From: a virus
UHGV virus genome: UHGV-0200387
Length of the DNA: 26,278 bases
Strand: one strand, 5' to 3'
The notes under the pieces are model-generated. The model had not been told where the DNA came from, made no database searches, and worked only from the letters and a program-made list of their open reading frames with translations. Within the stretch, counting starts at the first letter, position 1, and each line of letters opens with the position of its first letter. This document shows, piece after piece, positions 24,432-24,660 of the stretch. The translations under genes were made by a program, and so were the position numbers.

Positions 24432-24660
24432 AGTCTCTAACCTCCGGCTTAAAAGCGGGGGCTGTGTGTTTAAAAGGGGTCAGGCCCTCGGGACGATTTA
24501 ACAAGTAGGCGTGTCGATGATGGTTCCCGTGAGCCTGAAATAGAAAGCCCCAGCAAATGCCTAGGCTAAATGAGGTGCCAGATCATATATCTGGCGGTAT
24601 AACCTTGCGTTTGGTATTATTAAATCGCCAAAAGTAACCCTTCAAACACAAGGCTTTAAA

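Follow-up and report, generated by a model that had tools for sequence, protein, structure and literature searches.

Morons, the accessory loci of prophages, are independent units that have their own promoter, differ in composition from their surroundings and often lie antisense to the lytic genes (PMC3594210, PMC7067206); the combination of antisense placement and transcription from an own promoter is typical of them (PMC3594210, PMC7067206). The locus described here lies in a 26,278-nt stretch of the virus genome UHGV-0200387, which is referred to as the window. It resembles the prophage morons lambda bor and HK97 gene 15 (PMC3594210) in that a horizontally acquired, AT-richer gene with its own predicted promoter is bracketed by terminators, is inserted in a late operon against the direction of late transcription and is present or absent in related phages. 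It also resembles STMMW_20121 of ST64B, which is antisense to lytic genes and is transcribed from its own promoter (PMC7067206), a property that is predicted here from sequence. Unlike those morons, the cassette carries as cargo an uncharacterised DUF2441 protein with a modelled ADP-ribosyltransferase (ART) fold, always together with a convergent, overlapping small open reading frame (ORF), and its Escherichia coli version drags a relic fragment of Q along.

Described systems are also available for comparison at the level of the promoter. Extended -10 promoters do not need activators, and galP1 is a sigma-70 promoter of this TGn type. As in galP1-type promoters, the element upstream of the cargo gene has a TG one base before TAnnnT, no usable -35 element and a start about 7 nt downstream, as predicted here; unlike them, it has a conserved GC-rich dyad in its -35 region. 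The Mnt/Arc operators of P22 immI lie inside the late operon, and class II sites for CRP and FNR lie at -41.5. The present dyad is similarly placed near -40/-41 over the -35 region and, as at P22 immI, the promoter would be embedded among phage late genes. The dyad differs from those operators in that it matches no CRP, FNR, LexA, FadR, MetJ or lambda CI site, its half-site spacing varies and no small repressor is recognisable. A third likeness is to RNA-OUT/RNA-IN of IS10, in which a stem-loop complementary to the 5' end of an mRNA has one arm on the ribosome-binding site and is followed by a terminator. Unlike RNA-OUT, the locus has no conserved antisense promoter that we could find, the corresponding stem is convincing in the E. 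coli and Salmonella lineages only and the inverted repeat lies outside the mRNA. Judged by these comparisons, the cargo site is an ordinary moron arrangement with a standard extended -10 promoter.

An accessory cassette among the late genes of a P22-like prophage

The window represents the late part of this prophage, which is P22-like and whose genes are read on the minus strand: the holin gene (24431..24090) is followed by those for lysozyme, Rz, terminase and portal. The right end of the window (25890-26278) shares 98.2% identity with lambda 44868-44480, a segment that spans the end of Q and orf-64 according to the lambda annotation. On the lambda map, pR', 6S and tR' lie inside this segment, with tR' presumably near 25976-26037. 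Because the right end matches the lambda late-control region, we place a lambda-type late promoter pR' (TTGACT-17-TAAATT) at 26206..26178 on the minus strand, on the basis of a pattern scan, the identity to lambda and the lambda map. Late transcription from pR' is antisense to the cargo gene. An intact lambda-type Q gene is found just past the right end of the window. In the left part, a tRNA-Arg (CCT) gene (3023-3097, plus strand) may mark the prophage attachment site or be a phage-borne tRNA.

The cassette is 1.2 kb long and sits between the lambda-type Q/pR'/tR' region and the holin gene. Its GC content is 41-46% (24551-25717) compared with 53-58% in the adjoining lysis genes. On the minus strand, the order of its elements is terminator, relic Q, hairpin, 63-aa ORF, DUF2441 gene (antisense), promoter region and hairpin. 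A minus-strand terminator (25741..25725) stands on the pR'-proximal side. The relic Q (25521..25697, minus strand) is a C-terminal antiterminator fragment that covers positions 71-118 of the 118 in the Pfam profile Phage_antitermQ; it travels with the E. coli cassette and is annotated as a pseudogene in E. coli MLI104K1. This part of the cassette also contains a promoter-like sequence (TGGTCA-16-AATAAT, 25443-25470, minus strand) with a hairpin directly after it. A terminator-like hairpin just upstream of the 63-aa ORF (25410..25440, minus strand) is kept with compensating changes in Salmonella and Hafnia, and other hairpins occupy its place in Erwinia and Serratia. At the left edge of the cassette, a terminator-like hairpin with a T-rich tail (24539..24565, minus strand; hairpin at 24565..24549) lies 11 nt downstream, in the minus sense, of the inverted repeat described below, and its equivalents in the other lineages are clean intrinsic terminators with stems that differ in a compensating manner. 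The conserved terminators flanking the cassette are oriented for the minus strand. The cargo mRNA has no clear plus-strand terminator, and the best candidate is a two-way hairpin at 25493-25507. A search of 22000-26278 against Rfam gave no match.

A near-identical cassette (98.6-99.5% identity over 24456-25797) is present in 2 of 5426 complete E. coli genomes, both with different flanking Q and holin genes, and 17 further E. coli genomes contain the holin-proximal flank only, to about 24550. The cassette junctions lie within terminator sequences, which are homologous to one single terminator in cassette-free prophages. Otherwise similar prophages differ in the presence or absence of the cassette, which, with the shift in composition, is the behaviour of a moron. 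In every relative the DUF2441 gene opposes the phage late genes, and the place of insertion differs: the gap between Q and holin, among tail genes, or the gap between lysis genes and terminase, with the cassettes of Erwinia, Serratia, Providencia and S. liquefaciens at other late-operon positions. Scans for more cassettes gave one extra lineage from genomes and none from metagenomes, and a DNA-pattern scan of viral contigs returned only loci that were already known. A Serratia prophage with the cassette also encodes, downstream of its lysis genes, an anti-defence protein of the Acb2/Tad1-hairpin family (L012 890-1171 and L013 298-579).

Beside the cassette on its left, about 95 bp directly preceding the holin start (24456-24550) are 83-96% identical across many E. 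coli prophages, where they are found with different holin families and with the cassette present or absent. This segment contains a 14-nt inverted repeat (24480-24493 and 24525-24538), folds strongly as minus-strand RNA and has no match in Rfam.

The cargo gene and a convergent small ORF

The cargo gene (24661..25191, plus strand) is antisense to the late operon and encodes a 176-aa protein of the DUF2441 family (Pfam E = 4.7e-8), which Pfam places in the ADP-ribosyltransferase clan (PMC7955679). ATG 24661 is the first start codon past an in-frame stop, so the ORF cannot start further upstream. By sequence, a profile of the cargo protein matches PDB 2AUA, a protein of unknown function, with E = 2.4e-11, and 2AUA is also the top Foldseek match of an AF2 model of the protein (pLDDT 82). 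The Foldseek matches that follow are weak and consistent, and include the catalytic subunits of cholera, heat-labile (LT) and pertussis toxins, ParT and RES toxins. On the evidence of the model, the cargo protein has an ADP-ribosyltransferase-like fold. Three of its residues, R73, S75 and E105, do not vary and resemble an R-S-E motif. The protein cluster is represented on more than 350 E. coli contigs. A tblastn search of 50,697 phage records with the cargo protein gave no match, nor did PADLOC and NCBIfam searches with both cassette proteins. A DUF2441 gene of Salmonella Typhimurium, not tied to the present subfamily, has been seen in RNA-seq (PMC9867438).

Convergent with the cargo gene, and in the direction of the late operon, a conserved 63-aa ORF (25169..25360, minus strand) overlaps the 3' end of the DUF2441 gene by 23 nt. 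All related cassettes (E. coli, Salmonella, Erwinia, two Serratia lineages, Hafnia, Enterobacter, Providencia and Photorhabdus) have such a convergent small ORF, mostly with a length of 61-69 aa and with 88 aa in Photorhabdus; the encoded proteins share 30-55% identity between diverged lineages. Pfam, PADLOC and NCBIfam searches assigned the 63-aa ORF to no family, and a single-sequence AF2 model of its product is of low confidence (pLDDT 56). The 63-aa product may serve the ART-fold protein as a partner or an antidote.

A predicted extended -10 promoter upstream of the cargo gene

The earlier note had reported a TGn-type extended -10 element about 40 nt before the ATG and had read it as a promoter that may transcribe the cargo gene on its own. 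The element was confirmed, and that reading is well supported. The element, TGGTATTAT (24612-24620, plus strand), ends 40 nt before ATG 24661. It has TG at 24612-13 (-15/-14) and the hexamer TATTAT at 24615-24620 (-12 to -7), and thus shows the features of a sigma-70 extended -10 element: a TG one base before the hexamer, T-12, A-11 and T-7. The window has a single TGnTATWAT, counting both strands, and 51 occurrences of the looser TGnTAnnnT.

We compared the site in six lineages, namely E. coli, Salmonella (L007/L028), Erwinia (L009), Serratia (L012), the group L024/L152/L154 and Hafnia (L017), across which protein identity is 46-93%, with 53-93% stated for the cargo proteins. In an alignment anchored on the TG, the TG (-15/-14), TA (-12/-11) and T (-7) are invariant in all six, and positions -10 to -8 vary (TTA, TTG, TCG, TGG, AGG and TCG). 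Promoter geometry, rather than observation, places the transcription start at G24627, 7 nt past the -10 hexamer, which would give a 34-nt leader. This leader length is nearly constant, with 31-34 nt between the predicted start and the ATG in every lineage. A conserved block, AAATCGCCAAAA (24622..24633), spans the predicted start and contains CGCCAA, and a Shine-Dalgarno sequence (AAGG, 24650..24653) precedes the ATG by 7 nt at a position conserved in the lineages.

The sole bases of the -35 region that are invariant in six of six lineages are TGGC (24592..24595, -35 to -32), which fall within the right arm of the inverted repeat and are offset by 1 nt in L007 in the anchored comparison. CTGGCG matches TTGACA at three of six positions with an 18-bp spacer, a poor -35 match. 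A consensus promoter scan of the window did not list the TGGTATTAT site because it demands a -35 match, which is absent here. Relatives at 40-50% identity have different upstream sequences. Taken together, the five invariant bases and the steady leader length strongly support TGGTATTAT as the sigma-70 extended -10 promoter of the cargo gene.

No plus-strand source of transcription is apparent further upstream, because a minus-strand terminator and the opposing holin gene lie directly there; in the other lineages the upstream intergenic space is 131-145 bp. The cargo gene should be transcribed on its own in a lysogen. This expression is predicted, rather than observed, from the position of an AT-richer antisense cassette in a Q-dependent late operon, shielded by several minus-strand terminators.

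Other promoter-like sequences were considered and rejected. GTGCCA-17-TATAAC is without T-7 and is not conserved, and neither of two minus-strand candidates from the scan, TTGAAG-18-AATAAT (24645..24616) and TTTCCA-16-GATAAT (24791..24764), is conserved. ATGACA-18-TATCAT (24661-24690) lies inside the ORF, where M-T...F-Y-H codons account for its conservation. A sigma-54 promoter on the invariant TGGC would combine GG 24593-94 with GC 24607-08, which gives GG-N12-GC rather than N10, and the other lineages have no conserved -12 GC.

A conserved inverted repeat over the -35 region

The inverted repeat CCAGAT-CATAT-ATCTGG, which the earlier note had placed at 24578-24594, is present there (CCAGAT at 24578-24583, CATAT at 24584-24588 and ATCTGG at 24589-24594). 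G24577 and C24595 extend it to a perfect 7-bp stem, GCCAGAT-CATAT-ATCTGGC (24577..24595), which occupies -50 to -32 relative to the predicted start and is centred at -41. By itself, the repeat is not significantly above chance in the window, which contains 17 perfect 7-bp inverted repeats with 3-8-nt loops compared with 11.9 +/- 3.3 in Markov shuffles; one such repeat would fall in the 229-bp intergenic region with a probability of about 0.1. Folded as single-stranded DNA, the hairpin reaches -7.0 kcal/mol (z = -4.5 relative to shuffled versions of the 29-nt segment). A second match, GCCAG-N8-CTGGC at 15027-15044 (plus strand), lies inside the gene for a 472-aa virion protein; with 0.16 matches expected per window, this copy is not negligible but is probably due to chance.

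The repeat recurs in five of the six lineages, as GCCAGAT-CATAT-ATCTGGC in E. coli, GCCAGA-TGACG-TCTGGC in Salmonella, ACCAGA-TAGCG-TCTGGC in Erwinia, GCCAG-GAGGGTT-CTGGC in Serratia and GCCAG-CGCAAA-CTGGC in the L024 group (L024/Enterobacter). The arms GCCAG/CTGGC are identical in all of these except Erwinia, which has ACCAG/CTGGC. The centre lies at about -39.5 to -41 in the five lineages, the right arm is at -36 to -32 in four of them, with a 1-nt shift in Salmonella, and the conserved 5-bp arms are separated by 9, 7, 7, 7 and 6 nt. The 16-17-nt spacer between repeat and -10 element is 25-50% identical between lineages. The stem of the neighbouring upstream terminator changes with compensation, and the arms of the repeat show no compensatory change. 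Within L024/L152/L154, the repeat is constant and the flanking bases differ. Hafnia keeps the promoter and TGGC at -35 to -32 but has lost the left arm. The hexamer appears a third time, as CGCCAA (CGCCAG in L024), over the predicted start within AAATCGCCAAAA. We conclude from this comparison that the repeat, which overlaps the -35 region, is under constraint rather than a chance palindrome, because five of six lineages carry its arms at one and the same position while the flanks are just 25-50% identical.

A regulator-binding site as the favoured explanation

The explanation that we favour, tentatively and with somewhat less than even confidence, combines an extended -10 promoter for the cargo gene with a conserved dyad that would bind a regulator, either a repressor or a class-II-type activator. 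According to this proposal, TGGTATTAT would be the extended -10 element of a sigma-70 promoter that functions without a -35 hexamer, and plus-strand transcription starting near G24627 would yield a DUF2441 mRNA with a 34-nt leader. Its own promoter would let a repressed prophage express the cargo gene, and opposing late transcription from pR' would be halted upstream by tR' and three more terminators. The cis element would be GCCAG-N9-CTGGC (-50 to -32), most likely bound over the -35 region by a sequence-specific regulator that would act as a repressor, with the dyad as its operator, or as a class-II-type activator; like the start site, any such binding is predicted rather than observed. The regulator could also be a host factor.

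In support of a bound protein, the arms are invariant beside a terminator that covaries, which argues for sequence-specific recognition over bare structure, and the hexamer is repeated at the predicted start. The earlier note had expected an operator at the -35 position. That proposal stood in part: a dyad with 7-bp arms does lie on the core promoter, over the -35 region, and its half-sites are kept in five of six lineages, but their spacing is not fixed (9/7/7/7/6), and a rigid dimeric DNA-binding protein does not usually tolerate such variation. An operator role of the repeat, with repression of the cargo gene, is a reasonable proposal that faces a credible rival. Further points weigh against the favoured explanation. 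Hafnia has the promoter but no left arm. Neither the 63-aa ORF nor the DUF2441 protein matches a DNA-binding family (helix-turn-helix or ribbon-helix-helix), and the model of the 63-aa protein is uninformative. The conservation of TGGC in six of six lineages could reflect RNA polymerase contacts alone, the independent lineages number only six, and a regulator is not required because an extended -10 promoter can be constitutive.

Known binding sites, compared by consensus sequence to give leads only, did not account for the dyad. The arms read CAG...CTG rather than the CTG...CAG of a LexA box; relative to FadR, the hexamers of the fadB operator stand in the opposite order and the TGGT...ACCA core is missing; and a MetJ box gave a single 7/8 match, in Salmonella only. 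There was no consensus match for CRP or FNR. For lambda CI, TCTGGCGGT has 12/17 identity to OR1 but with a 1-nt gap in the half-site; the second half is absent, and other lineages do not conserve the match. The repeat is also not an intrinsic terminator, as no T run follows it on either strand and the terminator scan did not list it.

Alternative explanations for the repeat

A credible but less likely alternative keeps the promoter and assigns the repeat to RNA. The repeat would be a stem-loop (H2) in minus-strand RNA, either late-operon read-through or antisense, by which the cargo gene would be silenced much as in RNA-OUT/RNA-IN. In this layout H2 lies between a hairpin H1 and the terminator H3 and would shape or stabilise the 3' end of the RNA; the loop of H1 complements the cargo mRNA at its 5' end, and one H1 arm covers the Shine-Dalgarno sequence. 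H1 is a second inverted repeat of 13 nt, with its left arm AACCTTGCGTTTG at 24601..24613 pairing with its right arm CAAACACAAGGCT at 24643..24655, which carries the Shine-Dalgarno sequence. It brackets the -10 element and the start site, and its strength is confined to the lineages of E. coli and Salmonella.

Several results agree with such an RNA. The minus-strand RNA from 24665 to 24432 folds at z = -4.75 with the repeat as a discrete hairpin, and all three stem-loops, H1, H2 and H3, are also recovered for this strand by RNAalifold. (MAFFT had misaligned the terminator columns of one alignment, and its helix-3 counts were left out.) Fixed arms with a loop of variable length are tolerable for a hairpin, the spacing between H2 and H3 is 10-11 nt in five lineages, and in Hafnia the spot is taken by a different small hairpin. 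H1 is much stronger on the minus than on the plus strand (-19.4 versus -13.4 kcal/mol in E. coli and -17.2 versus -5.6 in Salmonella), because G-U pairs become C-A on the plus strand. Against this, the arms of the repeat have no compensatory change in five lineages, next to a terminator stem that covaries freely; H1 does not outdo shuffled sequences in Erwinia and Hafnia, and L154 gives an ambiguous result; and no conserved minus-strand promoter was found. Moreover, the repeat lies outside the cargo mRNA and so has no antisense target. With modest confidence, we rank binding by a protein above the minus-strand hairpin.

A pseudoknot between the H1 loop (UUGGCG) and a repeat arm (CGCCAG) was rejected, as Salmonella and Erwinia show no compensatory change. 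An extended -10-like sequence on the minus strand, TGATAAAAT (24681-24689), lies in the first cargo codons and is limited to E. coli and Salmonella. Four other lineages do not conserve its final T, and its presence is explained by the F-Y-H codons, which force it. It could launch an antisense RNA of about 125 nt that ends at the 24549-24565 terminator.

A constitutive promoter with a repeat that is itself functionless is an unlikely explanation; TGGC would then be kept as an RNA polymerase contact, and the left arm would be a leftover of, for example, a decayed terminator stem. The repeat does not exceed chance within the window, TGGC is found in all six lineages and the left arm in five, and in Hafnia the gene and promoter persist without the left arm. 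A terminator with the same arms, GCCAGCGACAGGCTGGC, occurs at the corresponding junction in a prophage that lacks the cassette (L003 2597-2613). However, the left-arm CCAG is identical in five lineages amid neighbouring bases that are nearly randomised, and the repeat stays constant in L024/L152/L154 despite the changes in its flanks.

That the site is not a promoter at all, with a fortuitous TG and -10 and a cargo gene that is silent or transcribed from farther upstream, is very improbable: it would fit the omission of the site from the consensus scan and the poor -35 match, but not the invariance of exactly the five diagnostic bases in six lineages, the minus-strand terminator and opposing holin gene that leave no plus-strand source directly upstream, or an upstream intergenic space of just 131-145 bp in other lineages.

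A possible switch and the interest of the locus

A more far-reaching proposal, to which we give little credence, is that the repeat, the start-site block and the bracketing stem together form the dedicated switch of a new two-gene module made up of an ART-fold DUF2441 effector and its 61-69-aa partner. The effector would then be expressed from its own promoter in the lysogen, for example with an anti-phage or toxin function, and would be shut off in the lytic cycle by late transcription that meets its gene head-on, by a structured antisense RNA and by its small partner. The GCCAG hexamers would serve as recognition sites for the module's own regulator.

The promoter type and the moron arrangement are textbook. 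If the favoured explanation is correct, the site shows how an uncharacterised ART-fold cargo gene gets expressed from a silent prophage, and the -10 element, start site, dyad and 34-nt leader offer a precise handle on the function of the cargo. Of modest interest are the conserved dyad, which has no known partner, and the movement of a two-gene cassette among late-operon positions of unrelated phages.

In the cassette of Serratia liquefaciens (50% identity), a different GC-rich dyad, AATGGCGCC-TGAG-GGCGCCATT (L153 2440-2500), lies directly upstream of an AT-rich, -10-like region. On account of this dyad, the placement of a dyad beside the promoter may recur with another sequence.
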